Shown here piece after piece: positions 1,434 to 49,365 of a stretch of DNA of 64,000 nucleotides. The stretch comes from a phage: sequence record PV467749.1. One strand, written 5' to 3'. The position numbers and the translations under genes were made by a program. The number at the start of each line of letters is the position of its first letter. Position 1 is the first letter of the stretch. The notes below the pieces were generated by a model. That model ran no database searches and was not told the DNA's origin. It saw only the letters and a list, made by a program, of their open reading frames with translations.

Positions 1434-1462
1434 TAACAAAAAAGGCTGACCGAAGTCAACCT
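1434..1462 (-). terminator. rho-independent terminator (hairpin GGTTGAC-TTCG-GTCAGCC + T-run on minus strand)
   Basis: Perfect 7-bp stem with UUCG-type tetraloop followed by T-run; identical hairpin recurs at 9568..9585. Confidence 0.6.
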
Positions 1463-1677
1463 TTATTTTGAAGTTCTTGAACTAATTGTCGTACTTCTTT
1501 GATGTTATGACACTGCTTTACAGTGAAGTAATCATACTTACGACCATAGGTTCTTGGGTCATCACCTTCCATATACTGCTGCACATCAAAGATTTGTAAG
1601 TAGGGATGCTGCATAACACGAATGTTATCACATTGGTAAATCAACATATGTTTAGTCCTCATATTTACACAAGCCAC
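1456..1677 (-). CDS. hypothetical protein
   Basis: 73-aa ORF; stop codon lies inside terminator stem. Confidence 0.4.
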   Translation of the reverse strand: MACVNMRTKHMLIYQCDNIRVMQHPYLQIFDVQQYMEGDDPRTYGRKYDYFTVKQCHNIKEVRQLVQELQNKG

Positions 1678-2002
1678 CGAATGTTGCCTGTTTTGCTGCC
1701 TTACGCATCATCACAAGTTTAACATACTGTTCACCATTACTTTCTTCATATACATCAACTTGAAGAAATGCAAGCATATTGGGATCAGTATCATTCGAGT
1801 ACTGCGTAAAACTAATGTCACCTACAGTATGTTCTTTAACAAAATTATACACTTCACCATCGATATAAACGATAGTATGGTCATCGCTATCACCTTGGTA
1901 AATGTGTTTAATATCACCTTCAGTACAGACTAGTCCAGGTAATGGTTCTGCATAAGACATACCACATATAATCATACAAACAAAAAACAAAATTACTTTC
2001 AT
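1652..2002 (-). CDS. secreted protein (signal peptide)
   Basis: Hydrophobic N-terminus MKVILFFVCMIICGMSYA then polar domain. Confidence 0.5.
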   Translation of the reverse strand: MKVILFFVCMIICGMSYAEPLPGLVCTEGDIKHIYQGDSDDHTIVYIDGEVYNFVKEHTVGDISFTQYSNDTDPNMLAFLQVDVYEESNGEQYVKLVMMRKAAKQATFGGLCKYED

Positions 2003-2382
2003 GATTTGTTTCCTTTGGATAAAATGGATTTCTTCACTTTGTACTGCTTGTAGTTATTATACCAAACATCGATTACATAAATCAAGTACCAAAGTGATGG
2101 ATATAATGATAGACCAATAAAAACTGAAAAAATACTTGTATTAATAAAACCAATACAGTGCAGTGTAAATGCAACGATTAGAATACCAATCGTAATCATA
2201 CTAGCTGAATATGGTACACTATCAGATGCGAACCATGAATCAACCTTACTAATTAAAGTATACTTCCCAGTACTAACAGCATAAACAATTGCTACTATAC
2301 CAAATAATGCCATTGAAATAGTTATTACTGAGTTAATAAGAATCGGAGTAATTAATACATAAAGCATTACATCGTTTATCAT
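1999..2382 (-). CDS. integral membrane protein
   Basis: 127 aa, multiple hydrophobic segments. Confidence 0.5.
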   Translation of the reverse strand: MINDVMLYVLITPILINSVITISMALFGIVAIVYAVSTGKYTLISKVDSWFASDSVPYSASMITIGILIVAFTLHCIGFINTSIFSVFIGLSLYPSLWYLIYVIDVWYNNYKQYKVKKSILSKGNKS

Positions 2383-2392
2383 TTGTTATACC

Positions 2393-2788
2393 TTAAAGTT
2401 CACAATGAATATTCAATTTATCAATATCCTGATCTCGTTTGTTCGACGAATCTTGATAAATGACTATGTAAATATCCCCATCCTTTGTCTTGGGGTCCAC
2501 TATCAATATTACATTTGCTATTATACCAGCATCTGATTTATATGTCGATACCTTTTTATTCCCAATCAAACTCTCGGCCCTGAAACGGTAAACCTCATTA
2601 TCTACGACAATATTGTTTCCATTTTGTGGGTCATTAGAAAGTACATGCCATGTTCCATCGTTTCCCATACAATCAAGGTAAGCAGGTACGGCTGTACTGA
2701 ACCTTGAATAAAGCATGAATACTACAAACACCATTATCATTCTTATATATTTTTTCATTATAACCTCTAACGAGCAATACTTCTGCAC
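2393..2788 (-). CDS. secreted or membrane-anchored protein
   Basis: N-terminal hydrophobic segment MIMVFVVFMLY. Confidence 0.5.
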   Translation of the reverse strand: MQKYCSLEVIMKKYIRMIMVFVVFMLYSRFSTAVPAYLDCMGNDGTWHVLSNDPQNGNNIVVDNEVYRFRAESLIGNKKVSTYKSDAGIIANVILIVDPKTKDGDIYIVIYQDSSNKRDQDIDKLNIHCEL

Positions 2789-2836
2789 ATATTATTTGTA
2801 CAGAAGTATTTAATACTATTAGAGACTTTTTGAACG

Positions 2837-3163
2837 TTACTTCTTACTAGTTAGTTTATCTTTCAAGATATCAAACCAAATGGAAACTTTACCAGCAAAC
2901 AATGCATTAGTAAACCACACAATACCAACAATATTCTCAACTAAATTCATAATTGAAACAAATGGTCCAATTGGTAATACAAAACTTACTAACCATGACA
3001 GTACTGAAATAAGTACTACAACGAAGAAGATTCGTGCAATGGGTGAGTCTAACATAAACAACTCACGAAACTCATCACGCTCGGTTTCGTCTTTAATGAA
3101 GAATTCGAAAACCATAACCCATAAAAGAATTAGAGCAGGAATTGAAATTAGAACTGATAACAT
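2837..3163 (-). CDS. membrane protein
   Basis: 108 aa with several hydrophobic helices. Confidence 0.45.
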   Translation of the reverse strand: MLSVLISIPALILLWVMVFEFFIKDETERDEFRELFMLDSPIARIFFVVVLISVLSWLVSFVLPIGPFVSIMNLVENIVGIVWFTNALFAGKVSIWFDILKDKLTSKK

Positions 3164-3221
3164 GTTTTATATCCTCAAGTTTAAGTATTAAGTTTCAGAC
3201 TACAAGAACCATTATACAGTA

Positions 3222-3464
3222 CTACAAACGTTTGTCAACAGGTTTTTCTTCAATAAGCATAAGATAACTGAAGACGAATAGTAATACAGATGCCATATCA
3301 ATAACCGTAAAGCTCACGGGAATGATAATAGACACTAGAACGAGTGCCACGTTTAGCAAGAATACAGTAGTGATATCCACCAGCTTTCGTTTAGTGGCTA
3401 CTGCTACTAGTGTAGGGTAGAACATAAACAATAATGCAACTACAAAACTCAATACTAGATACAT
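3222..3464 (-). CDS. small membrane protein
   Basis: 80 aa, two hydrophobic helices. Confidence 0.45.
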   Translation of the reverse strand: MYLVLSFVVALLFMFYPTLVAVATKRKLVDITTVFLLNVALVLVSIIIPVSFTVIDMASVLLFVFSYLMLIEEKPVDKRL

Positions 3465-4117
3465 TTCTTTTTCACCTTAAGAAAATTATAACATAAAACA
3501 ACCTCAACATCTGGCTCATCATACAAGTACTCAAAGCGTTCTTTACTACGCTTAGTACCGATGTACTCACCATTCTTATGCCAACGCCACCCACCACTCT
3601 CTGGTTGGTCAGACTTCAGTACTGGATGATAGCACATGACAATTTCTTCTGGACCTTCAATAAGGTTCTTGTACTTCGTCAAAATCTGTTCAAGCGTATC
3701 TGCTACACCATAAGACGGGTGCATAAGATAAGACTCAGGGCGTGGACGACCACTTGGTAGAATGTCATCAGTACTATTAAAGATAGCACGGAAGTCTTCT
3801 GACGTGTATAAACTTCCATCTTCATGGATCATTGGATACTCATCTACTACATCATAATCAGTGAAGTGTTCAATCGCATGTCCTGGTCTGTAACCTGCGA
3901 GGATACCTGTATGTTTCGTCTGTACAATAGTCATAACAGATGTACTATTGTTTACATTAGGATCATGAATTTCAGCCCAAAAAGGATGATGAGGATCAAA
4001 TTTAGCATTAACTAAAGTACAATCACCAATGTAGTCGAAATTAGTTTCTTTAAAGTTCAAAGAAACACCACGCAATGCCCAATCAGGAGAAGTGATGAAA
4101 TTAAGATTAACTAACAT
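3455..4117 (-). CDS. hypothetical protein
   Basis: 220-aa ORF. Confidence 0.55.
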   Translation of the reverse strand: MLVNLNFITSPDWALRGVSLNFKETNFDYIGDCTLVNAKFDPHHPFWAEIHDPNVNNSTSVMTIVQTKHTGILAGYRPGHAIEHFTDYDVVDEYPMIHEDGSLYTSEDFRAIFNSTDDILPSGRPRPESYLMHPSYGVADTLEQILTKYKNLIEGPEEIVMCYHPVLKSDQPESGGWRWHKNGEYIGTKRSKERFEYLYDEPDVEVVLCYNFLKVKKKCI

Positions 4118-4150
4118 AGTATCCTCAGTTGCAGTTGTTTTTTGATGTAG

Positions 4151-4474
4151 TTATTGTATCAAAGACGTGTCAATTTGTACAACATTTATTGTAACTATTT
4201 CGTACATATATTCAATTGCATTGAACTCTGCATACCACTCTACAATCTCACAAGCAGCATCAACTTGGGTTTTCGCATTAACACGTCTGGCATAGGTACT
4301 GCTCATTTTGAATCTACCATATTCATAGACATTGTAGACACCATGACACCACCACATCTTAGTCATTAATGCTAGGCCATACAGTGAATTGTAAGTCTTG
4401 GTATTCAAATTTACCAATATCATTCTTCTTACGGAATGATTCTTCAACCTGAATTTCTGCGTCGTACTGACCAT
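4151..4474 (-). CDS. hypothetical protein
   Basis: 107-aa ORF; overlaps upstream ORF 4359..4577, so true start may be internal Met near 4366. Confidence 0.4.
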   Translation of the reverse strand: MVSTTQKFRLKNHSVRRMILVNLNTKTYNSLYGLALMTKMWWCHGVYNVYEYGRFKMSSTYARRVNAKTQVDAACEIVEWYAEFNAIEYMYEIVTINVVQIDTSLIQ

Positions 4475-4577
4475 CGGCCTTTACTACGTACTTAAAATAT
4501 TCTACATGTGAAAAACGATACCCTTCTCCGTCTTGCTTGGATACTTGTACTGACCCTTCAACTAGATATAAATTCAT
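4359..4577 (-). CDS. hypothetical protein
   Basis: 72-aa ORF. Confidence 0.35.
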   Translation of the reverse strand: MNLYLVEGSVQVSKQDGEGYRFSHVEYFKYVVKADGQYDAEIQVEESFRKKNDIGKFEYQDLQFTVWPSIND

Positions 4578-4580
4578 TTG

Positions 4581-4802
4581 TCATTCTCCATCATATTCAG
4601 TGAGTATTACACTATGTACGGTTTCAATATAGCGTTGTGTTTTTGATGTGTTGTACTTAGTTACTTCATCAAACAATTTAAATAGTGCATGTGTTGGACT
4701 TAATGCACGAACAAATACATCAATCTTCTGTACTTCTTTCTTATAACCACGTACATTATTAAACTCAGATACATGCTCATACACAATGTAGTAACGATTC
4801 AT
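4581..4802 (-). CDS. hypothetical protein
   Basis: 73-aa ORF. Confidence 0.4.
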   Translation of the reverse strand: MNRYYIVYEHVSEFNNVRGYKKEVQKIDVFVRALSPTHALFKLFDEVTKYNTSKTQRYIETVHSVILTEYDGE

Positions 4803-5314
4803 ATATTAAGTAGTTCCATAAATTCATCGATCAAGGAAGTTCTAATGCACATAACAAATTCAAAATCAACATCGATAGTATCGAGTAGTTTGAACAACTT
4901 TGGTACATTTGGATCATTCAACTGGAAGTTATGAATCAAGCTCTGTTGAAACACACTTTCTTCAGTACTGTAATCAATAACAAAATATTCAGCTACACCT
5001 GGAGGTGAATAAACATCATATAATATCTGACGTTTATTGTGTGTTTCTGAACCAGGACAATATATAAGTTCTATTTCATATGAACCTGCCGAGGATCTAT
5101 CATAAAACACAATTTCAGTACTGATTATTTCACTACCATCACTTCGTTCATGAAAACATACATCGGCATATCGTTTGCCATTTGGCTTCAAAATCTCATG
5201 AGTTGTTTTACCATAACATTTATCAGTTTCAATGTGAATTTTGTCTTGATATTCAGAACGTCTTACATCATTTCCACGATTAAACAATAAGATCAACAAC
5301 TCATTAATATCCAT
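4799..5314 (-). CDS. FQxS-motif paralog family protein
   Basis: 171 aa; C-terminal STEESVFQQSLIHN matches family motif [DE][DE]x2FQxSx[VI]. Confidence 0.55.
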   Translation of the reverse strand: MDINELLILLFNRGNDVRRSEYQDKIHIETDKCYGKTTHEILKPNGKRYADVCFHERSDGSEIISTEIVFYDRSSAGSYEIELIYCPGSETHNKRQILYDVYSPPGVAEYFVIDYSTEESVFQQSLIHNFQLNDPNVPKLFKLLDTIDVDFEFVMCIRTSLIDEFMELLNI

Positions 5315-5571
5315 TATTTCGCCTCGATAACCTTAAGGTTAACAAAATCACCTTTTACTTTCATGCATTTGAATTCAGTGCGAGTTTCATCCCCACTATC
5401 GCGAGGCCAATGAGTAGCAGAGTAGCACTGGTCTGGTGTTTTATATACACCTTCACCAATAGTACGAGTGATTTCACCATTGGTGAGAACTACTGCGAGA
5501 TATAAAGTAAACATGATATTCGCCTTAGAATAATTTATTAATAATAATAGCACCCAACGCAAGAACTGCAA
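5314..5571 (-). CDS. small secreted protein
   Basis: 85 aa, hydrophobic N-terminus. Confidence 0.45.
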   Translation of the reverse strand: MQFLRWVLLLLINYSKANIMFTLYLAVVLTNGEITRTIGEGVYKTPDQCYSATHWPRDSGDETRTEFKCMKVKGDFVNLKVIEAK

Positions 5572-5667
5572 TAATTACAGATACCCACATTACTGCATTC
5601 ACTGTACCAGTTAGTTCTTTATCAAACTCCCTGCACTTCTTACGGTACTCTTCCCACTCTTTGTTAT

Positions 5668-5883
5668 TCACACTGCCGCTCCTAATAGGTCGGTAGCTTT
5701 CTTCAGTACTACGTCAATTGTTTCCAGTACTGCACCTTTGTGTTCAATTGATACAATATTATTATAAGTATCAAGGTCCAAGTACTCCATGTATTCAGTT
5801 TTGAATACACGAACATCAGTACTAGTGATTTTAATATCACAACCTTTATCCCAAATAACCTGCATCATTTCATTGGTAGTCAT
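5668..5883 (-). CDS. hypothetical protein
   Basis: 71-aa ORF. Confidence 0.4.
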   Translation of the reverse strand: MTTNEMMQVIWDKGCDIKITSTDVRVFKTEYMEYLDLDTYNNIVSIEHKGAVLETIDVVLKKATDLLGAAV

Positions 5884-6158
5884 TATTCAACCTTATCATA
5901 AACAAGTTTGTGTGTGCTTAGTACTTTGTTGAGATGTCCAGGGCATTCATATACATACAATCTCTCCTGACGTTTTTCCCAACCACCACAGATACGACCT
6001 GATTGTGTACATACCTCATACTCGTTAATAAAAGACTTACCTGTGAATGTACAATCCTGACGAACTAAGTCTTTTGCACTAAACCTGCCGTCATCATTAC
6101 ATGCTGTAAGAAACATTGTACAGAATACAAAGACAACTGTCAATAGTTTTTTAATCAT
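5883..6158 (-). CDS. putative lipoprotein
   Basis: Signal peptide ending in lipobox-like LTAC. Confidence 0.5.
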   Translation of the reverse strand: MIKKLLTVVFVFCTMFLTACNDDGRFSAKDLVRQDCTFTGKSFINEYEVCTQSGRICGGWEKRQERLYVYECPGHLNKVLSTHKLVYDKVE

Positions 6159-6523
6159 TGAACATCACCCCAACGGAAACCTTTCATATAATTCAAATTC
6201 ACCTCAACGAGTTCATGTGTTTTTGTGCACCAAATGGAGAGAGTTTTTGTAACATCACCAGGTTCAGATTCATAATTCACACAATAACCTTCAATGCGTA
6301 GAGTTTTGTTAGTCCAATGTTCCCACTCAATCCAAATTTCATTTGGATAATAAACCATATCTTCTTTGAACGTATGGAATTGATCCATTGGTAAATGACC
6401 TTTAACTTCAATTACTTCAGCACTTCGAGCCAGTTTTTCAAGCTTGTACTTTATTTCAGCAAGATATTCTTCATCATTCAGACGAGTTAATAAATCTGTT
6501 GCACGGGTTGTATCAAGGCTCAT
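6155..6523 (-). CDS. hypothetical protein
   Basis: 122-aa ORF. Confidence 0.5.
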   Translation of the reverse strand: MSLDTTRATDLLTRLNDEEYLAEIKYKLEKLARSAEVIEVKGHLPMDQFHTFKEDMVYYPNEIWIEWEHWTNKTLRIEGYCVNYESEPGDVTKTLSIWCTKTHELVEVNLNYMKGFRWGDVQ

Positions 6524-6771
6524 TGTTGTACTCCATTAATCACTGAAGTATTGATTCGTGTTTTACCGCTGCTGTATCCAGTACTGGTATTTGCATTAGG
6601 GCAATAAACTGTATACAAGGTTACACCAGCACCGTCCTTTTGCATACGATAAATCTTACATCCTGCTTCTTGTAATTCAATAGGGAGAATAAAATCACTT
6701 GTGCGTTCTTTTGTTGAAGCGTCACATGCAGTGAGTAAAAATGCAACGAGTACTGCTACGATATATTTCAT
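6520..6771 (-). CDS. putative lipoprotein
   Basis: MKYIVAVLVAFLLTAC signal peptide with lipobox. Confidence 0.5.
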   Translation of the reverse strand: MKYIVAVLVAFLLTACDASTKERTSDFILPIELQEAGCKIYRMQKDGAGVTLYTVYCPNANTSTGYSSGKTRINTSVINGVQQ

Positions 6772-7079
6772 TAACGAACCTCCACTTCTTGAGAAAGAGC
6801 ATGAGTCAGTGCATTTGAATTCGAACTATTCATTTCACGCTGACATACAAACATAATGGCATCTTGTACTGAACCTGCGATTTCATACTCACGACCTTCT
6901 GGATCAGTTACCAGATGTTCAACGATACAACCACCACGCAGTACAGAAGCACCAGTACTTACACTAATCCTGTAACCTAAAAAATCAAACTGCATACATG
7001 CGTCAGTAGGTTTCATCCAATAACCGCTGTTTTGATTCAAATCGATGATTACAAAACCTTGAGTGTTAGTTTGAAACAT
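6771..7079 (-). CDS. hypothetical protein
   Basis: 102-aa ORF. Confidence 0.5.
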   Translation of the reverse strand: MFQTNTQGFVIIDLNQNSGYWMKPTDACMQFDFLGYRISVSTGASVLRGGCIVEHLVTDPEGREYEIAGSVQDAIMFVCQREMNSSNSNALTHALSQEVEVR

Positions 7080-7172
7080 AGTTAATTCCTCATTTAATTT
7101 AAAAGGGTGGAAACGCAGTGACGAGTACGATTATGCTGTCTTTCCTTTCACTGCATTCCCTTTGATATAAAC

Positions 7173-7200
7173 ATTATACAGTACTGATATCTTATGTCAA
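7173..7200 (-). promoter_or_regulatory. sigma-70-like promoter (TTGACA-16-TATAAT)
   Basis: Minus strand reads TTGACA TAAGATATCAGTACTG TATAAT; spacer ends with palindrome CAGTACTG. Confidence 0.6.
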
Positions 7201-7296
7201 GTATTAATCACCAAAAATCATCAGATACCCAAACCAACCCACACAGACGACTAAGCTAACAATACCAAAGACAATCTCTAAAGTCATGTTGCATCC

Positions 7297-7497
7297 TTAA
7301 TCAATGATTTTATATTCACGATGACCATAGAATCCAGCCTCAAGGATGCGATTACCATCAGCATCTTCCAAATCCCACCCACGGGATGTTTCGGCAATAA
7401 TAGTCATGATGTGACCTCTTGGGAAAATTCCACTCATGGTGGATACATCTTCAAGTAATTGAACCTTCTTACCAACATTTGTATTTGATTTAAACAT
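7297..7497 (-). CDS. hypothetical protein
   Basis: 66-aa ORF. Confidence 0.4.
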   Translation of the reverse strand: MFKSNTNVGKKVQLLEDVSTMSGIFPRGHIMTIIAETSRGWDLEDADGNRILEAGFYGHREYKIID

Positions 7498-7506
7498 ACT
7501 TTACCC

Positions 7507-7689
7507 TTATTCGTTGATTACGTCAAGTACTTTGTCCAGTTTCTTACCAATACTATCCTTTGGTTTCTCACCATTCTGGAATACATTAGTACTGCAATAC
7601 TCAGGACGGGTATTAGGGAACTTCTCGTTCATCCAGGAGTGACCATATACACCAAGAATGATACCTACGATAAGAATGATGATTTGCAT
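7507..7689 (-). CDS. small membrane protein
   Basis: 60 aa with N-terminal hydrophobic helix. Confidence 0.4.
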   Translation of the reverse strand: MQIIILIVGIILGVYGHSWMNEKFPNTRPEYCSTNVFQNGEKPKDSIGKKLDKVLDVINE

Positions 7690-7703: not shown

Positions 7704-8588
7704 TTAAATTACATATGGTTTATAGTAATGAATCTCGTTTGATATTGCAGCGAAGACTTTGTTATTAAATCTTTCACCATAATCACGAAGAGATTCACCT
7801 TCTTCGCTTTCAATAAAGTAATTATATACTGGTAGACGTGCGGTGTCAACACCTATAAATGATTTCATGTAAATTTGTACTAAACGATTCATTCCTTCAT
7901 TTAAGCATTGCACCTCAAAGTGCTTGATACCTTTGTCTAAATGTTTGAATGCATTAATGATACCACGTTTAAAATCACGCTGCATAGTACTGAATAGATT
8001 CTCAGGGAACACTGTAATAGGTGACATTGATTTAAGAATGTATGTATCTTTAGCATTCTTAATATACTCAATGAAGCAGTAGTTAACGTCAGGCTCGATA
8101 GAACGATCAGCGTTATGATACCAGTACTTAAACTCACTGTACTCAGCAAACTTATGCTGGCGTAATGCGTTACAATCCTCACACAGTGCAGTCATGTTCT
8201 CTTTATCATTGCCACCCTGGAGACAGTCCAGTACATTATGGTCTAACGTCATGCGTACAAGGCGTTTACCTTTAAGTACATAAGGTCTGAATTTATAACG
8301 GTCTTTAGTACTGTGCTTATGTAAAGTGAATACCACATTGGATTCACCACAACAATCACATTTAAAGCCATCGCGTGACATTACATGAATGAGTTTTCGA
8401 GTATTTGGGCCGAACTCAGATTTAGTAATGTTGCCAACAATTTCTGATGGGTCGTAGTATTTTGAATTCCGGCGAATCAATTCATCTATAGTGCTCATTT
8501 TATATTTCTCCAGCAAGACACTCAAAAGTGACTTTTTTAACTTCGATAACTCGTACCAAATAGTATCCATGAAAGAAATTAAAACCAA
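7704..8588 (-). CDS. HNH endonuclease (probable homing endonuclease)
   Basis: Cys cluster CDCCGESN and LDHNVLDCLQGGNDKENMTALCEDCN, HNH-type motif; true start may be internal Met. Confidence 0.6.
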   Translation of the reverse strand: MVLISFMDTIWYELSKLKKSLLSVLLEKYKMSTIDELIRRNSKYYDPSEIVGNITKSEFGPNTRKLIHVMSRDGFKCDCCGESNVVFTLHKHSTKDRYKFRPYVLKGKRLVRMTLDHNVLDCLQGGNDKENMTALCEDCNALRQHKFAEYSEFKYWYHNADRSIEPDVNYCFIEYIKNAKDTYILKSMSPITVFPENLFSTMQRDFKRGIINAFKHLDKGIKHFEVQCLNEGMNRLVQIYMKSFIGVDTARLPVYNYFIESEEGESLRDYGERFNNKVFAAISNEIHYYKPYVI

Positions 8589-15217: not shown

Positions 15218-15333
15218 AAAATCCCCTTATTGATATTCCATTTAAGTATACGTCAAAAACACAACTCAGTCAAGGTGCTTTTTTACCTATCTAGAATAAA
15301 TACGTTATAATAATTATACCAATGGAGGGATGA

Positions 15334-16491
15334 ATGTCAAGATCGATTGCTGCTGCTGGACAATATAAGTTCGGTGAATGTGGATATGTAGTCGATGGTG
15401 CAATTCTCAACGATGGGACTAAACTCAAAAATGTTCGAATCTATCGTCAGAGAAGCCATAGATTATATGATTTACTTGATCCTGTAAGTAATGTAATTTA
15501 TCGTAAAGTACAAATTACAACAAAGGATATACAAGGATATCAATTAAACTACAACAAAACTAATGACCAAATCCTAAGTGAAATAAGAAAGAACTCTTTT
15601 TTCGTAAGAGGATACTCAGATGCTAAACTTGAATCAGATCCTACTGGGTTTGTTTATAAGTTTCTTTTGCACAAAACAATTCTAGGTAGTTCACAAACAC
15701 TATATAATATGTACACCCCTGAATGCGGGATTATAGATAGAGATATAGACAACATCCTTATGTTCCCAACGTTCGTAGGTGATGATTTGGTAGGTGGTCG
15801 CCTATTCAACGCAGGTTCAGCCATTGATACAACTGGAATGCGTATTACCGTTATACTTCCTGACGGAACCGAGTACTTCACAACTGAAATAATTGATGAT
15901 GTTTTTAGTATTCCAGTTGATCCAATTACTCAATCCGGTAAAGGAGCCATCATACTCACATCTGACATATATAATACCAAAACTATTGAATTTGATATAC
16001 TAGAAAGCGGCGAAGATATTGACTTCGTTACTTCAGTACTTCTATCTCAGTTTGAGTACACGTCCGATGGTATGTACATGGCAACTGTACCAGCTACTGT
16101 GCATGAGCGTGGTGAGTATCTTGCTCTACAAGCATACAGTGGTGATTTATTCCAAATTGGAGTAGACCTCATTGTAGATCCTAGCGGTAATATTACTGTG
16201 TACCAAACTGATGATGCTCCAATCTCATTGAGTATTATTGGTAAAACCTTACACACCACTCCATATCACAACACGTATACTGATAGTGATTGGGTAGATG
16301 ATGGTGATTCTATGTACACACTGTCCATTCCTGCCAGTGAACATGGTAAAATCCTCCCACAAGTTCAAGTCTATGCTGAAGACAATCACGTTGTACTAAG
16401 TGAAGTTGAACTCGATGCAGATGATAATGTTGTATTAAAAGTTGTTGAACCATTTGGCTGTACTGTAGTCATTGTTGGTTATAACGCATAA
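15334..16491 (+). CDS. hypothetical protein (only substantial plus-strand gene)
   Basis: 385-aa ORF with RBS GGAGGG upstream, followed by bidirectional terminator. Confidence 0.6.
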   Translation: MSRSIAAAGQYKFGECGYVVDGAILNDGTKLKNVRIYRQRSHRLYDLLDPVSNVIYRKVQITTKDIQGYQLNYNKTNDQILSEIRKNSFFVRGYSDAKLESDPTGFVYKFLLHKTILGSSQTLYNMYTPECGIIDRDIDNILMFPTFVGDDLVGGRLFNAGSAIDTTGMRITVILPDGTEYFTTEIIDDVFSIPVDPITQSGKGAIILTSDIYNTKTIEFDILESGEDIDFVTSVLLSQFEYTSDGMYMATVPATVHERGEYLALQAYSGDLFQIGVDLIVDPSGNITVYQTDDAPISLSIIGKTLHTTPYHNTYTDSDWVDDGDSMYTLSIPASEHGKILPQVQVYAEDNHVVLSEVELDADDNVVLKVVEPFGCTVVIVGYNA

Positions 16492-22248: not shown

Positions 22249-22301
22249 ATAGTATGGAGTATTTATTTTCAAGAAAAATGTTATTTCTAAGAATATATTT
22301 G

Positions 22302-22372
22302 TGGTCAATATTAGAATCGAACTAATGACTCAGACTTACAAGATCCGTGTTATACCATTTAACTAATCAACC
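22302..22372 (-). tRNA. tRNA-Thr (anticodon TGT)
   Basis: Hand-folded cloverleaf: acceptor GGTTGAT/ATTGACC, D-stem GTTA/TAAC, anticodon stem CGGAT/GTCTG with loop CTTGTAA, T-arm ATTAG-TTCGATT-CTAAT. Confidence 0.65.
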
Positions 22373-22376
22373 AGAT

Positions 22377-22424
<48 letters not shown>

Positions 22425-22425
22425 C

Positions 22426-22467
<42 letters not shown>

Positions 22468-22544
22468 TACGCATCAACTTGATTAAGCCAAGTGTCGGCA
22501 TAGGTGCAGCACTACAAAGTACTTCAAGCTGTTTAGCAGTTTCT

Positions 22545-22813
<269 letters not shown>

Positions 22814-22832
22814 AACTGAATACTTACATCCC

Positions 22833-22867
<35 letters not shown>

Positions 22868-22912
22868 ATAGGCACACACGGAACTGCTTTATAAGCTACT
22901 GAATCGGGAATC

Positions 22913-23180
<268 letters not shown>

Positions 23181-23189
23181 TAATACCCG

Positions 23190-23591
23190 CTAGTAGTTTA
23201 AGTCTGCGGCGTTGAAGACACCAAGTGAAGTCTTACCACGTAGTTTAGGTGAAATGACATATTTTGTCAATTTCTTTTTACCGTACCAGTGATTGAATTC
23301 GTCTTCAGTAACATGTGGGTTCTGGAAATCGTATTCACGTTTCTTATGAAGTTTTTTAGCTTGTTCTGCAATCTTAGTTCGTTGATCTTCTGGAATGTCG
23401 AATGTATTGTTACGTTTGCACCATTCGTGCACTAATGCTTCCAGAAGGAACTGTTCAGTTTCTTTGACTAGAGTGATTTTAGTCAAGCCTTTTTCGATGT
23501 TCATATAATCATCGACATATCCATTCCAAATAACAATCTCTGGATTGCCGTCAATCTCTTGAAGCATTTTGATCAAGTCATTCTTTTTCAT
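23190..23591 (-). CDS. hypothetical protein (paralog of 22962..23177)
   Basis: 133-aa ORF sharing N-terminal segment with neighbour. Confidence 0.5.
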   Translation of the reverse strand: MKKNDLIKMLQEIDGNPEIVIWNGYVDDYMNIEKGLTKITLVKETEQFLLEALVHEWCKRNNTFDIPEDQRTKIAEQAKKLHKKREYDFQNPHVTEDEFNHWYGKKKLTKYVISPKLRGKTSLGVFNAADLNY

Positions 23592-23599
23592 TTAAATTC

Positions 23600-23857
<258 letters not shown>

Positions 23858-23866
23858 ATTTGTTTC

Positions 23867-24052
23867 CTATGAAATGAATGTAGCGTCAATTCCCATTATA
23901 AATGCAAATATACCAAACAATATCAACCCGATTGGTACAAAGATCATAGATCTATTTCCATGTTTCGATAAAAATCGCTCAACTGTAATTAAACGTATTG
24001 ATATCGGAACCATTATGATAATATACAATATTGAAAGAATTAAAAGTTGCAT
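23867..24052 (-). CDS. small membrane protein
   Basis: 61 aa, two hydrophobic helices. Confidence 0.4.
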   Translation of the reverse strand: MQLLILSILYIIIMVPISIRLITVERFLSKHGNRSMIFVPIGLILFGIFAFIMGIDATFIS

Positions 24053-24080
24053 TTTAATTTCCTATTGTAATTTCGTTTTG

Positions 24081-24153
24081 CGACTCTGGAGGAACTCGAA
24101 TCCCCAACCAATTAATTAACAGTTAATCGCACCACCTATTGTGCTACAGAGTC
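24081..24153 (-). tRNA. tRNA-Asn (anticodon GTT)
   Basis: Acceptor GACTCTG/CAGAGTC, D-stem GCAC/GTGC, anticodon stem ATTAA/TTAAT with loop CTGTTAA, T-arm GGGGA-TTCGAGT-TCCTC. Confidence 0.7.
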
Positions 24154-24161
24154 ATAATTAT

Positions 24162-24368
24162 TTATAAGCCATGTCTTTTCAAAAATCTAGCAAACACATT
24201 TTTGGAAGCACCATAACTTTCATATATACTAACTTTTTTCTCACCATTATTCAAACGTTTTTTGATATCTTCTATGTTATCTTCTAAACGTTTTACGTTT
24301 GCAAATTTCTTAGATGGTATATTATTTTTGGTTCTATAATTCAGTACTGAACCTGAACTAATATTCAT
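24162..24368 (-). CDS. small putative DNA-binding protein
   Basis: 68 aa; C-terminal KVSIYESYGASKNVFARFLKR resembles homing-endonuclease-associated HTH (NUMOD-like), unverified. Confidence 0.35.
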   Translation of the reverse strand: MNISSGSVLNYRTKNNIPSKKFANVKRLEDNIEDIKKRLNNGEKKVSIYESYGASKNVFARFLKRHGL

Positions 24369-24389
24369 TATTTTATTTCAAAGTTTGTG

Positions 24390-24694
24390 AGCCATCTGTG
24401 AGTCGAACACAGTACCTAACGATTCGTATAATCTATAGTTTTCACTATAGTACGGACTATATCATCATCCCATAGGGATGCCGGACGCTAATGATGTATT
24501 ACACAGTAAGATCGTACTGTACCATCTAGTCTCTGCACCTTCCCAATACGCTTATTGGGCTTGGCTCAGGATTGTCATCACCATTACGTGTTAAGATTTC
24601 CCTGAATTCATCCAGTTTTTCAATCACCATTACTGATGAAAGTCACCATTGTCGATGAGTCGTTTGCTCTAACCACCGTGAGCTAATGGCCCGA
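24390..24694 (-). tRNA. tRNA-Met/Ile (anticodon CAT) interrupted by group I intron
   Basis: 5' exon 24657..24694 (GGGCCAT TA GCTC..GAGC A AACGA CTCAT) and 3' exon 24390..24426 (AA TCGTT AGGTA CTGTG-TTCGACT-CACAG ATGGCTC A) join into a 75-nt cloverleaf. Confidence 0.7.
24427..24656 (-). other. group I intron (IC3-like) in tRNA anticodon loop
   Basis: Insertion after anticodon U36, last intron nt G; contains GAAGGTGCAGAGACTAGATGGTAC, near-identical to the P7/J8-7 core of known tRNA group I introns as I recall it. Confidence 0.65.
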
Positions 24695-24699
24695 TTTAG

Positions 24700-24938
<239 letters not shown>

Positions 24939-24961
24939 ATTAATTATATCAGTACTTAATC

Positions 24962-25339
<378 letters not shown>

Positions 25340-25416
25340 ATCACCAACTTTAATTAAAAAAATGGATGGTGACGCTTTTAAACGCCGCTGTTAATTCAGC
25401 TTTATAACCACCCGTT

Positions 25417-25626
25417 TTAACTTGCCTTTCGGCTACCTTGACGTGGGGCGTACAGGCTACTAAAAGCAACTACTGTAAACATATTTCCACGCCTTACCCT
25501 TTTAAATAAAAGTCCATCCGGTTTTCCAGTTTGGTGAAGGATAGTCACCTCTAGTTTAAACCTGCTAGTCAAGTAATAATTGCCTATCGTCCAATTATCA
25601 AACCCGTCTAGGTTAACATTCACCAC
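25417..25626 (-). CDS. hypothetical small protein
   Basis: 69-aa ORF with good RBS (AGGAAG) but located in tRNA region; could instead be structured RNA. Confidence 0.3.
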   Translation of the reverse strand: MVNVNLDGFDNWTIGNYYLTSRFKLEVTILHQTGKPDGLLFKRVRRGNMFTVVAFSSLYAPRQGSRKAS

Positions 25627-25700
25627 TTCCTAGAGTACCAGAGATCTTGTTCTGGATTGCATCGACGTAGCTTACACCATATACGTCTGATTGTGGAATT

Positions 25701-25726
25701 CATTATATCAGTACTGAACTATTTAG

Positions 25727-25731
<5 letters not shown>
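25701..25731 (-). promoter_or_regulatory. sigma-70-like promoter (TTGACT-17-TATAAT), copy of repeat
   Basis: Minus strand TTGACT AAATAGTTCAGTACTGA TATAAT; about 30-bp element repeated at 26123..26152. Confidence 0.5.
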
Positions 25732-26152
<421 letters not shown>

Positions 26153-26160
26153 CTTTTTAT

Positions 26161-26321
<161 letters not shown>

Positions 26322-26325
<4 letters not shown>

Positions 26326-26482
26326 ATTCGTACCAGTAGTTCAATTAAGTACATTTCATATGCTGGATCGTTGATAAGTTTATCATACAGATGTGGCTCT
26401 GAAATGAATTCCCAATGATACTTTAGCCATTTACCGATACCCGAATATCTAAAATTAATATCATTCATCCATTCTTCATGTG

Positions 26483-26486
<4 letters not shown>
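26322..26486 (-). CDS. MTHEEW small-protein family, copy 2 (54 aa)
   Basis: MTHEEWMNDINFRYSGIGKWLKYHWEFISEPHLYDKLINDPAYEMYLIELLVRI; ATGA overlap with neighbours. Confidence 0.45.
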
Positions 26487-26647
<161 letters not shown>

Positions 26648-26649
26648 GG

Positions 26650-26750
<101 letters not shown>

Positions 26751-26754
26751 ATTT

Positions 26755-26870
<116 letters not shown>

Positions 26871-27410: not shown

Positions 27411-27608
27411 TTACGGTTTACTATTTTTACGTTTTTCTGATTCGGGTACAGTTTTCATTTCACCAATACATAGTTCCATGATGAGTACACCTTTGTCATT
27501 ATAACGTACTACATCTTCAATGTCAAAATGTCTCGCACTATGAACAACTTCAATACATGCATCATCGGGATATGATTCCAATAATGCTACAAGTTCTGCT
27601 TTAGTCAC
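27411..27608 (-). CDS. hypothetical protein
   Basis: 65-aa ORF. Confidence 0.4.
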   Translation of the reverse strand: MTKAELVALLESYPDDACIEVVHSARHFDIEDVVRYNDKGVLIMELCIGEMKTVPESEKRKNSKP

Positions 27609-27621
27609 TTTGGATTCCTCG

Positions 27622-27970
<349 letters not shown>

Positions 27971-32208: not shown

Positions 32209-32498
32209 TACAATGTTCCTTTCATAAAGTCAGGGATAACGATTACGATAGAAGGATTATACTCCACATATCCATTCTTTGTCAATAGACTTTTGATATC
32301 AGAAATAACATTATCATGTTGTTCCATATCTTTATCGCAGTGAATTTCCAATTCTTTTAGGAAAGGTTGTTTAACTGAAATTGATTGGGTCAGTGTTTGA
32401 ATACGCTGCATCATATCAATTGGATCAGGACTAAACTCATTACCAACATAAAGTGTACCAGATGCATCCTTTTCAAGTAAGACTTCTAAAATTTTCAT
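32208..32498 (-). CDS. hypothetical protein
   Basis: 96-aa ORF. Confidence 0.45.
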   Translation of the reverse strand: MKILEVLLEKDASGTLYVGNEFSPDPIDMMQRIQTLTQSISVKQPFLKELEIHCDKDMEQHDNVISDIKSLLTKNGYVEYNPSIVIVIPDFMKGTL

Positions 32499-33331
32499 TT
32501 TGTACCCTTTAATGTACCAAAATTACGTAGAGTAAATCCAGGAACTGGGAAATATACATCACAGTCAATGTCAGGATTAATTGTCACTACCTCATTACAC
32601 ATTATATCACGAATTCCACTTCCGTCTACGATTTTTTGCATTAAATCGTTCCATTCTTTTCGTTCAATAACATATGTGTTAATCAAACACAAGTCATGAC
32701 CACGTTTCGAAATATAACCAAGTACTACATCATTGTGGACAACACGTATAGTAACTTTTCCAATTCGAGTTCCTCGTACTGCATTAGTACTAGTATCGTC
32801 GTAAATCAGTTCTATCCTAAGTGAACCATTAGATATAAGAGTTGTGGTATATTTTGAAACCATATTCTCAATTTCTTGAGTTAAATCGTCTCGGTTAAGG
32901 TACTCAAACACCGAATATGTCAACTCATTTGCATCCAAATATTGGACTGTTGGAAGCTGGGCAACCATATCCAAAGATACAGGTTCTATGTATATTTTTT
33001 CAATATCAGATGTTTTGACGAATAGATACCCTTCTAGCGTCATTGAACTAACAATTTCCGCATAATAAGAGTACAGATAAAAAACATTCGTCTCATTCGA
33101 ATCAGTTTCTACCCAAACCTCTGGCTGTTTCATCTCATATTGTTGTAGAATTCGTTGTGTAAACCCAATGTAAAATCCAAGATTAACATCGGATTGAGTT
33201 TCAAATGGATTAAACATCAAATATGGATATTTGTCAAGATACTCATTGAACTTACGCTGGGTATCTCTATCACAATCAATGATGTACTTTCGGAATTCAG
33301 AAATAATTACTTTTTCCAATGACATAATCAA
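32495..33331 (-). CDS. hypothetical protein
   Basis: 278-aa ORF. Confidence 0.5.
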   Translation of the reverse strand: MIMSLEKVIISEFRKYIIDCDRDTQRKFNEYLDKYPYLMFNPFETQSDVNLGFYIGFTQRILQQYEMKQPEVWVETDSNETNVFYLYSYYAEIVSSMTLEGYLFVKTSDIEKIYIEPVSLDMVAQLPTVQYLDANELTYSVFEYLNRDDLTQEIENMVSKYTTTLISNGSLRIELIYDDTSTNAVRGTRIGKVTIRVVHNDVVLGYISKRGHDLCLINTYVIERKEWNDLMQKIVDGSGIRDIMCNEVVTINPDIDCDVYFPVPGFTLRNFGTLKGTK

Positions 33332-33525
33332 TCCTCACGATGCATATAGTACATAAACATCGCCAACCATATGCAGAATCCCACGCAACGAAGAAACAGA
33401 TCAACTGTTGGGTCTGTACCACCATTAACTTGGTAAACGATTACTGGGATTAAAGAAATAGCAATAGACACTGTACATAAGATGAATGCAACAAACACCT
33501 CAAACATAAACTTAATCGTTTCCAT
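33328..33525 (-). CDS. small membrane protein
   Basis: 65 aa, two hydrophobic helices. Confidence 0.4.
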   Translation of the reverse strand: METIKFMFEVFVAFILCTVSIAISLIPVIVYQVNGGTDPTVDLFLRCVGFCIWLAMFMYYMHRED

Positions 33526-34099
33526 TATTATCCTTCAATGTGTAGTGTAGTACATCTAAAAAGTTATACATTGATTCATTACGCATAACCTTGATTGTTA
33601 AATTACCACAACCCAACATACGTTTGAGGCGACGCTTCACAGCAGTTAAATCATGAGAACTATTTGTGTACAGACCATTAACCTGACCCGGAACAGTAGG
33701 AACATGAAGAATGTAATCATAATTCATTAGTAAGCGTTGATTATATTTCTTTAATGCTTGCTTGTATTCTGAAATATTTTCAAAGAATGTACAATAACGG
33801 TCGTAACGATTCATTTTATTCAAAATTGAAATACGAAAAGCGTTACCACTATTCCAATCATCTTCAGTTGGGTTTGGGTTGATATGTGCCATGTTAGCTG
33901 TACTATACCCACCACTTGTGAAAACTTCAGAATATCCATTCTCAAAAACATACAATGTTGCTTTGTGTCCTCGGAATTCTTTACGGTACTTTGACAGAAC
34001 TTGAATGTGATTACGCTTGGACTTGTACATTTCGTAACCTTCATAATCGCCACTGAATTCACAAATTTTATCAACACCAGCCATTTCGTATATCCTCAT
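33512..34099 (-). CDS. hypothetical protein
   Basis: 195-aa ORF. Confidence 0.5.
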   Translation of the reverse strand: MRIYEMAGVDKICEFSGDYEGYEMYKSKRNHIQVLSKYRKEFRGHKATLYVFENGYSEVFTSGGYSTANMAHINPNPTEDDWNSGNAFRISILNKMNRYDRYCTFFENISEYKQALKKYNQRLLMNYDYILHVPTVPGQVNGLYTNSSHDLTAVKRRLKRMLGCGNLTIKVMRNESMYNFLDVLHYTLKDNNGND

Positions 34100-34617
34100 T
34101 TGATTAATATAGGAGTATTATACATACTCCATTTTCATGTGTCAAGCTTTATAATACGGAAGACTTTTCACTAAAGATTCTGACGTATTATTTTTTACCC
34201 ATGTACTACCGTTGTCATTGGATACATATCCAGTACCATTAACAAACTTACGCATAATACCAGTAAAAATATTAGTATACACCATTACTCAGTATCCTTT
34301 GGTTTAGAATGTAAACCATACTTTTCATCATAACGATCATAGGTAGTGCCATTAGTACTAGCTTTGATGCTTTCGGTGCGATTGATTGGTTCGATTTTGA
34401 CACCACGATAACCAATCTCTTCTTTAAATTGTTCCCATGATTCACGTAGACTCATTTTAGTCCCCTTTTTGTTATTTCATACACTCACGTAGGTCAATCT
34501 TTTCAACTGAACCACCGAGTACTAGATAGTGAAAATTAGAATCTTTGTTTGCCATATTCAAAAGATCTGCTTTCTGTTGAAGCGTAAAGCGTGAAGTACT
34601 GTTACGTACTGGCATAG

Positions 34618-36450: not shown

Positions 36451-36981
36451 TTAATCGAGTATAGTAACTTCAATCAAACGAATTTCGATGAATTCGTTTT
36501 CAGTTTCCCATGATGAACCTAATTTCTTATTAAGTTCAGTTTTAACATCACTTTTAAATTTTCCCATAGTATTAGGAATAATTTGTTTGGTTAGTTTGTC
36601 ATAACCACAATAAAACATAGGTTTCTCCCTTCGAGATATTAGCTCAACAAAATCCTTTGGATATGCAGGTATATTATGCATCACTTCATGAATGCACTCA
36701 GTACTTGAATCTTGTACTTTGTACATTACATTAAGTTTACCTTTGAAAGTTCTAATCATATCAACAATAATACCTTTACCAGATTTAAGTAAAGTTCCAT
36801 TCTTTGTATGAGAACAATAGAATACCTCATCACCAATATTAGGATAGTACAAATTAAATTCTAATTCTTCCTTTGATGACTGACGTTGAAATTTCATTAC
36901 ACGTTCAGTATAGGTGGGGTAGTTCTTCATGTTCAAAAGAATATCTCTCTTAGTAAGTGTGATATAACTGGCATAGTCCAT
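36451..36981 (-). CDS. hypothetical protein
   Basis: 176-aa ORF directly downstream of methyltransferase; no Vsr-type motifs seen. Confidence 0.5.
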   Translation of the reverse strand: MDYASYITLTKRDILLNMKNYPTYTERVMKFQRQSSKEELEFNLYYPNIGDEVFYCSHTKNGTLLKSGKGIIVDMIRTFKGKLNVMYKVQDSSTECIHEVMHNIPAYPKDFVELISRREKPMFYCGYDKLTKQIIPNTMGKFKSDVKTELNKKLGSSWETENEFIEIRLIEVTILD

Positions 36982-41176: not shown

Positions 41177-41573
41177 TTACTGTGTTTTTGATTTCTAACA
41201 ATTCACTATACATCTTCTTCAATTGTACAATATCTTCATATAAAATACCACCCATATCATCAATCAAAGAACGTTGGAATAGTGATTCATCTGACTGTAT
41301 CGTGTCCAAATCAGAAATTTTCAATACTGTAACTGGGTTTAGGGTGTTTACAATAAGTTTGTTTGTGTATGGGATGTATGTGATCTTGATATTCATTTCC
41401 GAATCAAGGGCATACAACCTCAAAACAGACAAATCACCACAAAGTTGGATTTTTGGTTCATCAAACTCATCAGACCACCACATAGTACTAGTCATATAAT
41501 TGACGTGTTGGTTCAAATGTGATATATCCAAATCGAAATAATATTTTAGTTCATTGTGTAAATCTAAACTCAT
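41163..41573 (-). CDS. FQxS-motif paralog family protein
   Basis: C-terminal SDESLFQRSLIDD. Confidence 0.55.
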   Translation of the reverse strand: MSLDLHNELKYYFDLDISHLNQHVNYMTSTMWWSDEFDEPKIQLCGDLSVLRLYALDSEMNIKITYIPYTNKLIVNTLNPVTVLKISDLDTIQSDESLFQRSLIDDMGGILYEDIVQLKKMYSELLEIKNTVIVGS

Positions 41574-49284: not shown

Positions 49285-49365
49285 ATTTCGTTCCTTATCT
49301 GTATATTAAAAAAGAGTGCGTTTCAATAAGAACATTATATTGAAAACGCACTCTTGTGTCAACTA

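Follow-up and report, generated by a model that had tools for sequence, protein, structure and literature searches.

Nine small minus-strand genes for secreted, lipoprotein and membrane proteins lie at positions 1652-7689 of the 64,000-nucleotide stretch of phage DNA in sequence record PV467749.1 (hereafter the window). The initial annotation had treated most of this interval as a single envelope-targeted cluster; our analysis points instead to two operons, whose parts differ in phyletic distribution. The best functional guess, drawn by analogy, is superinfection exclusion by a route other than receptor masking, and in the form that we tentatively put forward, as credible rather than probable, the early products would protect the periplasm and inner membrane against a second attack in a manner analogous to T4 Spackle and Imm. 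The window phage is assigned by sequence to Asteriusvirus, as a jumbo coliphage (myovirus) of the 121Q/PBECO4 type; over the 5.8-kb interval the identity is 99% to Escherichia phages EC.P1, fEgEco12 and WPEC3 and ~86% to 121Q/PBECO4, the G+C content of the window is ~35%, and its minus strand carries nearly all of the genes. The nine envelope genes are the following:

1652-2002, minus strand: SP1, 116 residues, signal peptide MKVILFFVCMIICGMSYA cleaved before EP, mature part of 98 residues, predicted eight-stranded beta-barrel
1999-2382, minus strand: TM127, 127 residues, predicted inner-membrane protein of 3-4 helices, conserved tail LWYLIYVIDVWY..Y.KK
2393-2758, minus strand: SP2, 121 residues, signal peptide ending in FSTA and cleaved before VP, paralogue of SP1 in the PliC-like beta-barrel family
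2837-3163, minus strand: TM108, 108 residues, predicted inner-membrane protein of three helices, basic C-terminal tail (AGKVSIWF...KK)
3222-3464, minus strand: TM80, 80 residues, predicted inner-membrane protein of three hydrophobic helices, charged C-terminus
5525-5671, minus strand: TM48, 48 residues, single C-terminal transmembrane (TM) segment of the tail-anchored type, hydropathy 2.84 at residues 26-44
5883-6158, minus strand: Lp1, 91 residues, lipobox LTAC, mature N-terminus C-N-D-D, four further cysteines
6520-6771, minus strand: Lp2, 83 residues, lipobox LTAC, mature N-terminus C-D-A-S, phrog_902
7507-7689, minus strand: TM60, 60 residues, N-terminal TM or signal-anchor helix, in the upstream transcription unit just beyond the interval first described

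Each of the 24 open reading frames (ORFs) between 37 and 7689 is preceded by a Shine-Dalgarno sequence, and the ratio of nonsynonymous to synonymous divergence (dN/dS) against 121Q ranges from 0.03 to 0.26; because every frame has a ribosome-binding site (RBS) of this kind and purifying selection acts on them, the genes of the interval are real. Envelope targeting was judged from the translations by hydropathy in 19-residue segments and by inspection of lipoboxes and cleavage sites. At least eight envelope genes had been claimed between 1652 and 6771, and of the eight in the stated intervals seven were predicted in this way to have signal peptides or TM segments. Of the five consecutive genes at 1652-3464, two encode signal-peptide paralogues and three encode polytopic membrane proteins. 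The products of 5883-6158 and 6520-6771 are lipoproteins with the lipobox LTAC in both, the cysteine of which is kept in diverged homologues. Signal peptides, lipobox cysteines and paired cysteines are retained in homologues down to 25-40% identity. Two single-TM genes absent from the earlier list, TM48 and TM60, complete the nine solid assignments; TM48 belongs to phrog_38271, a family of unknown function, and is 92% identical in 121Q (dN/dS 0.09), and TM60 is 97% identical there (dN/dS 0.03). The eighth claimed gene, at 5314-5571, did not hold up as described, being a TTG-extended frame with a 47-nt overlap into the upstream gene. The frame starting at the annotated and RBS-supported ATG at 5514 encodes a 66-residue protein (g66) with 11 uncharged hydrophobic residues at its N-terminus, unconvincing as a signal peptide, and no 19-residue hydrophobic segment, so that its envelope targeting is doubtful; its match to DUF1482 (E=0.0035) is below the cut-off. 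Scans of Pfam, NCBIfam and PADLOC with the ten envelope proteins (g66 included) and ten neighbors returned nothing above cut-offs, and we set aside as hydrophobic-segment matches both the PADLOC '4TM effector' match of TM127 (E=3e-4) and the CARF_TM match of TM108.

The proposal of a protective function starts from SP1 and SP2. The two are paralogues (E=6e-7), SP2 beginning at the ATG at 2758 and not at the GTG at 2788, and the duplication is old, since the Klebsiella phage RaK2 already has both copies. Across ten SP1/SP2 orthologues from five phages the signal peptide, C26, C112, D38 and D48 are invariant; in a wider alignment of 12 sequences the C-terminal cysteine is invariant and the N-terminal cysteine is present in at least 90%, the exception (P0216) being an 80-residue fragment. 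A Sec signal peptide with an A-x-A-type site in all homologues examined predicts export to the periplasm. The family is very narrow: when the mature domains were used as a profile in an exhaustive search of 1.84 billion representative proteins, only 12 hits came back. An AlphaFold2 model of mature SP1, built with the family sequences, reached a mean predicted local distance difference test (pLDDT) score of 88.8 and a predicted template modeling (pTM) score of 0.79 and contains eight beta-strands, with the two cysteines on the first and last of them, as for Cys76-Cys154 of PhiA (PMC8334348), this terminal pair being a putative disulfide. The predicted eight-stranded antiparallel barrel of ~90 residues resembles MliC/PliC (COG3895, PF09864), and the SPs share with MliC, PliC and PhiA a length of ~95 residues, Sec export and a cysteine pair at the barrel ends (PMC2267010, PMC8334348). 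Since sequence similarity to those families and their SGxxY motif are lacking, we describe SP1 and SP2 as PliC/MliC-like in predicted fold and do not file them as members. In a viral structure library the only close matches to the SP1 model were from its own family. The SP profile also gave weak multi-repeat matches to Ig-repeat proteins (Big_7/Big_13), which, given the barrel model, we put down to noise from composition or beta-strands.

The genes around SP1 and SP2 travel with them. The order g220-TM80-TM108-SP2-TM127-SP1 is kept, with an occasional zinc-finger gene or other small gene inserted, in 121Q, A4, JNE01, RaK2 (ORF262-267) and two metagenomic contigs, and TM127 directly follows SP2 in all seven lineages examined. 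TM127 also overlaps the SP1 start by 4 nt, and the phyletic distributions of TM127 and SP1 are identical; the SP and TM genes are confined to RaK2-like phages. The positional analogue of TM108 is RaK2 ORF264, which has a similar tail, and the helices of TM80 are kept in its orthologues in 121Q, A4, JNE01 and RaK2 (ORF263). A test for paralogy among TM80, TM108 and TM127 found none. Several local variations were seen in this block. A gene for a TraR/DksA-type C4 zinc finger is inserted after TM80 in A4 (5042-5302) and in contigs L021 (2731-2991) and L022 (1273-1533), where its next neighbor is TM108 in A4 and L022; in L021, a contig without TM108, it immediately precedes SP2. The window, 121Q, JNE01 and RaK2 do not have this insertion. 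At ~3316-3662 of metagenomic contig L021 an uncalled TM127-like frame (tail CCWYIIWVIDYNW) lies directly after the SP2-like gene and reflects a gap in gene calling.

Within this block the four genes at 1652-3163 (SP1, TM127, SP2 and TM108) have only 43-78% amino acid identity to 121Q, compared with 87-99% in their neighbors, and their synonymous divergence (dS) is saturated. This pattern indicates a divergence hot spot at which old alleles have been swapped by recombination, and not recent positive selection; such deep allele divergence is typical of loci for phage-phage or phage-host specificity. In A4 (ON286972) a 41-residue ORF at 6901-7026, A4_205, reproduces exactly the last 41 residues of the window SP1 and lies directly after A4's own SP1 (6498-6851), which is only 58% identical to that of the window; we read it as a scar of allele replacement by recombination. 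Synonymous divergence from 121Q is ~0.03-0.06 in three of the four genes of 5883-7079, the fourth being Lp2 at 0.24, and 0.16-0.99 for most other genes, with SP1 and SP2 saturated. Since this measure varies from gene to gene, adjoining genes must have very unlike coalescence times, a fine-scale mosaicism.

The promoters of the interval suggest when these genes are expressed and how they are divided. The window has 11 perfect sigma-70 sites (TTGACA-N16-18-TATAAT) against an expectation of 0.17, and every one is on the coding (minus) strand. With 11 or more matches of 12 accepted, the minus strand has 37 sites and the plus strand 0. By its appearance the entire window is an early region served by the host polymerase, in which promoters recur every few genes. 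The elements that delimit the operons, and the soluble genes named with them, are these:

7173-7200, minus strand: P_A, TTGACA-N16-TATAAT, intergenic, 94 nt upstream of the gene at 6771-7079, heading the unit with Lp2 and Lp1
3211-3238, minus strand: P_B, perfect sigma-70 promoter, intergenic, 48 nt upstream of TM108, heading TM108-SP2-TM127-SP1-g63
1441-1464, minus strand: terminator-like hairpin, 10-bp stem and T-run, after g63, closing the P_B unit
1456-1647, minus strand: g63, 63-residue soluble protein, final gene of the P_B unit
3455-4117, minus strand: g220, 220-residue soluble protein, heading the syntenic block, its stop overlapping the TM80 start by 10 nt
5314-5514, minus strand: g66, 66 residues, from the annotated and RBS-supported ATG at 5514
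3211-3238, 7173-7200, 7821-7849, 15313-15340, 22660-22687, 27498-27526, 27643-27670, 32256-32285, 34117-34145, 44291-44319 and 49334-49362, minus strand: the 11 perfect sigma-70 sites

An equivalent of P_A lies exactly 94 nt before the orthologous gene in 121Q, A4 and JNE01, and P_B is found at the orthologous place in 121Q (12/12), A4 (12/12), JNE01 (11/12) and RaK2 (11/12, 45 nt before ORF264). From these elements we infer a unit A running from P_A through g102, Lp2, g122, Lp1, g71, TM48 and g66 onward to g220 and TM80, and a unit B running from P_B through TM108, SP2, TM127, SP1 and g63 to the terminator. Both would be transcribed early by the host RNA polymerase, on which the related jumbo phage PA5oct depends (PMC7318152).

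Further observations concern the same elements. The next promoter (1459-1430, 11/12) has its -35 element within reach of the hairpin at 1464-1441, and the overlap makes a compact terminator-promoter junction. Around P_A, at 7080-7296, the window is without a gene of ~93 residues that is present in 121Q, JNE01, A4 and vB_Ec-M-J, where it has its own perfect promoter and, in the A4 record, is annotated as a sigma-70 family sigma factor. g220 keeps 45-52% identity as far as RaK2 (ORF262, 46%) and two metagenomic relatives, always directly upstream of TM80 and overlapping it, and RaK2 ORF278 is a second copy-like gene nearby. Elsewhere in the window four tRNA genes lie on the minus strand at 22301-26844 (Thr-TGT, Asn-GTT, Ser-GCT and Ser-TGA), with small ORFs and strong promoters between them.

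The two lipoproteins of unit A appear to be unrelated to each other, small and disulfide-containing, and their sorting residues suggest a position at the inner membrane's periplasmic side. Lp1 is restricted to Asteriusvirus and a few Salmonella and Klebsiella jumbo phages. Its lipobox cysteine, C36 and C72 are invariant in homologues, and C50 and C57 are lost together in distant members, as a disulfide pair would be. Lp2, by contrast in range, matches phrog_902 (unknown function, E=5e-13), has relatives by tblastn in ~580 phage records, essentially all of virulent phages, and gave 96 clusters in a profile search; its carriers include Felixounavirus/Mooglevirus, rV5-like Vequintavirinae, Eneladusvirus jumbo phages and 114-kb Vibrio phages, among others. 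In the family C16 (the lipobox cysteine) and C38 are invariant, C57, P30 and K70 are present in at least 90%, and 54 of 61 members have exactly two cysteines in the mature part. The +2 residue is Asp in 30/61 (the window Lp2 among them) and Glu in 11/61, and Asp at +2 is the Lol-avoidance signal for inner-membrane retention in enterobacteria, where D or E at this position blocks entry into LolCDE (PMC9595528); Lp2 is thus predicted to be kept at the inner membrane. Lp2 is the sole gene common to seven distant neighborhoods, with no conserved partner or neighbor, which suggests that it works alone. Elsewhere its homologues sit among early and replication genes; in the window the genes around the lipoproteins are, apart from those for an HNH endonuclease and a sigma factor, small early ones with hypothetical products, and no receptor-binding gene adjoins. 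We regard the Lp2 family as broad, so far uncharacterized, and made up of what seem to be stand-alone lipoproteins of virulent phages. No Pfam model covers it in our scan of 62 members, and the precomputed 'PF16225' tag carried by all Lp2 homologues was discarded as irreproducible in that scan. The Lp2 structure model was weak (pLDDT 64), gave no fold match and led to no conclusion, and searches of PDB sequences with Lp1, Lp2 and the Lp2 profile returned signal-peptide matches only.

Public records of the interval name almost all of its products 'hypothetical protein', with three exceptions: fEgEco12, in which both Lp1 and Lp2 are labelled 'lytic conversion lipoprotein', vB_Ec-M-J, in which 6520-6771 (Lp2) is 'Cor superinfection exclusion protein', and CRJP21, in which the SP1 orthologue (1652-2002) is 'structural protein'. 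We compared the lipoproteins with genuine HK022 Cor and with a T5 Llp query checked to be 100% identical to T5 llp. Lp2 weakly matches phrog_1119 (Cor; E=9e-4, residues 1-49), and hhalign of the full-length Lp2 family with HK022 Cor gave a probability of 91%; between the mature-only Lp2 family (60 sequences) and the mature-only Cor family (82) the probability was 0.05% (E=0.8). Because the match collapses on trimming to the mature domains, the 'Cor' label is a signal-peptide artefact, as is 'lytic conversion lipoprotein'. By BLASTP neither lipoprotein aligns with HK022 Cor or T5 Llp, the 18 columns that hhalign aligned with Llp are all signal peptide, and the cysteine pattern of the Lp2 family differs from that of Cor. 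A third 'lytic conversion lipoprotein' in fEgEco12 (g556, 41199-41450, just past the low-coordinate end of the window) is a secreted-looking protein of 83 residues, lacking a lipobox cysteine and dissimilar to Lp2, and we reject it as a lipoprotein; since a non-lipoprotein bears the same label, that label is unreliable. The label of the SP1 orthologue is unsupported by the phAPEC6 virion proteome (62 proteins, PMC7247149), in which there is no orthologue of the interval genes. The phAPEC6 record (MK817115) leaves orthologues of SP2, Lp1 and Lp2 unannotated (33160-33609, 36655-36927 and 37295-37543), so the virion mass spectrometry would be blind to these three if the annotated proteome was searched. 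Genome descriptions of Sharanji, JP4, UE-S1, fEgEco12 and phAPEC6 contain nothing on these genes or promoters, or on holins or spanins.

How these products might act together can be framed by the T4 precedent, in which Spackle, an early periplasmic inhibitor of the tail lysozyme, gives superinfection exclusion together with the inner-membrane protein Imm (PMC7677548). Under early protection of this kind, the small products would alter the inner membrane and periplasm soon after infection and the cell would resist further phage. SP1 and SP2 would act by binding and inhibiting a peptidoglycan hydrolase, for which the GH24 tail lysozyme of similar incoming phages is the most plausible candidate. 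The membrane proteins and inner-membrane lipoproteins would, like T4 Imm, hinder the step that follows, in which the tail tube or DNA crosses the inner membrane. Unit B would provide two periplasmic barrel proteins interleaved with small polytopic membrane partners as a conserved module, unit A would add two lipoproteins facing the periplasm from the inner membrane, and swappable, deeply diverged alleles would fit specificity classes. A Spackle-like hydrolase block is suggested because SP1 and SP2 have the predicted fold and compartment of PliC/MliC and, putatively, their disulfide pattern. The setting is also like that of T4 Spackle (gp61.3) and Imm in that apparently early genes of a large virulent myovirus with a gp5-like lysozyme hub encode small periplasmic and inner-membrane proteins. 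The ten envelope proteins have no annotated PHROG match that would indicate homology to Spackle or Imm; Spackle is an alpha-helical bundle (PMC7677548), whereas the SP1 model is all-beta, and the periplasmic and membrane genes are here adjacent and duplicated, unlike those of T4, with exclusion only putative. The analysis establishes the genes with their export signals, the paralogy, the synteny, the promoters, the predicted fold and the range of each family; the early timing, the inner-membrane sorting, the disulfides and all of the functions are ones that we infer. The closest known systems are Spackle/Imm in function, MliC/PliC/PhiA in fold and, by a database label that the evidence does not support, Cor/Llp.

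For such a block the genus offers a candidate target. The baseplate hub of its virion is gp5-like and has at the C-terminus a lysozyme domain of the GH24 family (residues ~765-887 of phAPEC6 gp241). The hub gene is a single ORF of 887 residues in phAPEC6 (159409-162072) and PBECO4; in 121Q (315387-318533), SP27, fEgEco12 and others it lies in two pieces, with ~490 extra bases and two annotated ORFs, which suggests an insertion or a split gene.

A bolder form of the exclusion hypothesis, which we consider unlikely, holds that SP2-TM127-SP1 (with TM108/TM80) is an unrecognised two-component exclusion module of RaK2-like phages, an independent counterpart of Spackle plus Imm, and that Lp2 (phrog_902) is in addition a widespread stand-alone inner-membrane exclusion factor. 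PliC-fold proteins would have been recruited against the GH24 tail lysozyme while dedicated membrane partners blocked the tube or DNA, phages that are otherwise nearly identical would fall into exclusion specificity groups according to their swappable, anciently diverged alleles, and the range of phrog_902 would be that of virulent phages of Gammaproteobacteria. For Lp2 and Lp1 a functional precedent for an entry block from the inner-membrane side is TrbK of plasmid RP4, an entry-exclusion lipoprotein that acts at the cytoplasmic membrane and is likewise very small. NCBIfam gave only a match below threshold (TIGR04359, E=0.032; 14 bits where the cut-off is 23), which covers residues 4-43, mostly signal peptide, and is no evidence of homology.

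A number of points weigh against early protection as a reading of the interval. PliC and MliC inhibit GH22 (C-type) lysozymes, and an SP target in the tail lysozyme would be GH24; we know of no PliC-fold inhibitor of any GH24 enzyme. At the sequence level SP1 and SP2 show no detectable similarity to MliC/PliC: neither matched PF09864 (MliC) at E<=1, nor did six distant members at E<=0.01, and hhalign of the family against E. coli MliC gave a probability of 0.06%. The SGxxY loop that PliC and MliC insert into C-type lysozyme is missing from the family, the motif occurring in 0/22 sequences, and TKG occurs once, by chance; a distinct near-invariant motif, DGxxY/F, is present. The Asp+2 sorting signal is modulated by the +3 residue, and Lp1 of the window has Asn at +2 in place of the Asp of its distant homologues. 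The early timing is predicted from promoter consensus. Co-variation between SP alleles and the tail lysozyme gives no clean picture, the identities of the joined lysozyme not being comparable across records in many of which the gene is split or carries an insertion. PhiA, which like the SP family lacks SGxxY, failed in vitro to inhibit the muramidase proposed as its target (PMC8334348). The enrichment of envelope genes is real but modest, and the phyletic distributions of the components differ, which makes a shared function for the whole interval unnecessary.

These last two points lead directly to the rival that survives best, and which we think somewhat unlikely, namely that the genes have no common function and are unrelated small accessory early genes among which only local pairs, such as SP2-TM127, are functional units. 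The share of genes with a hydrophobic segment is 9/19 here and 16/105 in the rest of the window (post hoc Fisher p=0.003), and in a window-wide permutation scan the value for any 19-gene stretch is p~0.10; at stricter hydropathy thresholds the excess weakens or vanishes, and the same phage has other clumps of membrane genes at 12.1-14.6 kb and 44.1-48.6 kb. The separate promoters and operons, the contrast between a widespread Lp2 (580 records), a narrow Lp1 and SP/TM genes found only in RaK2-like phages, the lack of any conserved neighbor of Lp2 and the interspersed soluble genes of unknown function all agree with this rival. It accounts less well for the run of five consecutive envelope genes (p~0.02 in the same scan), for a block order conserved across genera and metagenomic relatives, and for the conserved dedicated promoter, the overlapping or closely spaced frames and the paralogue duplication inside the block.

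The predicted fold of SP1 and SP2 is also open to a role in cell-wall housekeeping, in which they, and perhaps the lipoproteins, would restrain host autolysins or transglycosylases, the phage's own muralytic enzymes or environmental lysozyme, keeping the infected cell intact over the long latent period of a jumbo phage and not serving to exclude other phages. The PliC/MliC-like barrel, the periplasmic location and the predicted early expression would suit such a role, control of lytic transglycosylases has been proposed for MliC-type proteins (PMC2267010), and PhiA, which has the PliC fold, shows a genetic link to an endogenous muramidase (PMC8334348). All of these coliphages meet the same host enzymes, however, and the deep divergence and swapping of alleles at the SP/TM genes would be left unexplained, as would the paired membrane proteins, for which housekeeping provides no role; SGxxY, needed against C-type lysozyme, is absent. 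We judge this explanation to be distinctly unlikely.

Lysis control, which the initial annotation had offered as one possible function, is in our view very unlikely. The membrane proteins would be holins or antiholins, the lipoproteins outer-membrane spanin subunits (o-spanins) and the SPs RI-type antiholins or endolysin regulators. TM80, TM108 and TM127 are indeed holin-like in being small, with 3-4 helices and charged C-terminal tails, the genus literature consulted names no holin or complete spanin, and a related genus is reported to have only an orphan o-spanin-like gene (PMC7760394). Against this, the perfect sigma-70 promoters and the window-wide early signature point to early expression. 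Lysis genes are normally late. There is no match to holin, antiholin or spanin families in PHROG, Pfam or NCBIfam, no endolysin adjoins the genes, and no inner-membrane spanin subunit (i-spanin, with an N-terminal TM segment and coiled coil) stands beside either lipoprotein, the genes flanking Lp1 and Lp2 being without a TM segment. The lipoproteins are themselves cysteine-rich and predicted to be folded and globular, not proline-rich like o-spanins, and Asp at +2 runs counter to the outer-membrane sorting that a spanin requires.

The receptor masking that had also been suggested, with Lp2 (and Lp1) as outer-membrane proteins of the Cor/Llp kind that bind an outer-membrane receptor (FhuA for Cor and Llp) from its periplasmic side and block adsorption or injection, is highly improbable and already largely refuted by sequence comparison, because the features that recommend it (small lipoproteins of 60-70 mature residues with mature cysteines in a virulent phage, as in T5 Llp, lambdoid/T1 Cor and Rtp45, probably early expression, the Cor-directed matches and the labels) are outweighed by the loss of all similarity in the mature domains, the null BLASTP result, the differing cysteine patterns, a mislabelled non-lipoprotein in the same record, Asp or Glu at +2 in 41/61 members of the Lp2 family compared with Ser in Llp and Ala (C-A-G) in Cor, the different receptors used by Lp2 carriers, which leave the family not bound to one receptor, and the want of the adjoining receptor-binding gene that accompanies known exclusion lipoproteins (PMC11990801, PMC12685063).

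The early envelope-modifying proteins of virulent phages decide whether a cell can be doubly infected, and thereby bear on phage competition, recombination, therapy cocktails and the loss of progeny on debris. To our knowledge only a handful of such proteins are understood: T4 Imm and Spackle, T5 Llp, Cor and Rtp45. A literature search of incomplete coverage found no description of phage-encoded PliC-fold proteins or of the phrog_902 lipoprotein family, and SP1 and SP2 differ from MliC/PliC, including Brucella PhiA and Neisseria ACP, in being encoded by virulent phages, duplicated and interleaved with membrane genes. If SP1 and SP2 are muramidase inhibitors, they would apparently represent the first viral use of the PliC/MliC fold, a second independent solution of the Spackle type and new inhibitors of GH24 phage-type lysozymes. 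Hundreds of therapeutic-type phages (Felix O1-like, rV5-like and jumbo) carry a member of the Lp2 family, at present either without annotation or under the wrong label 'Cor', whose correction is of importance to automated annotation. Should the function of these genes prove to be a different one, a cleaner map would remain, of two early operons, a six-gene block conserved across genera and a recombination hot spot.

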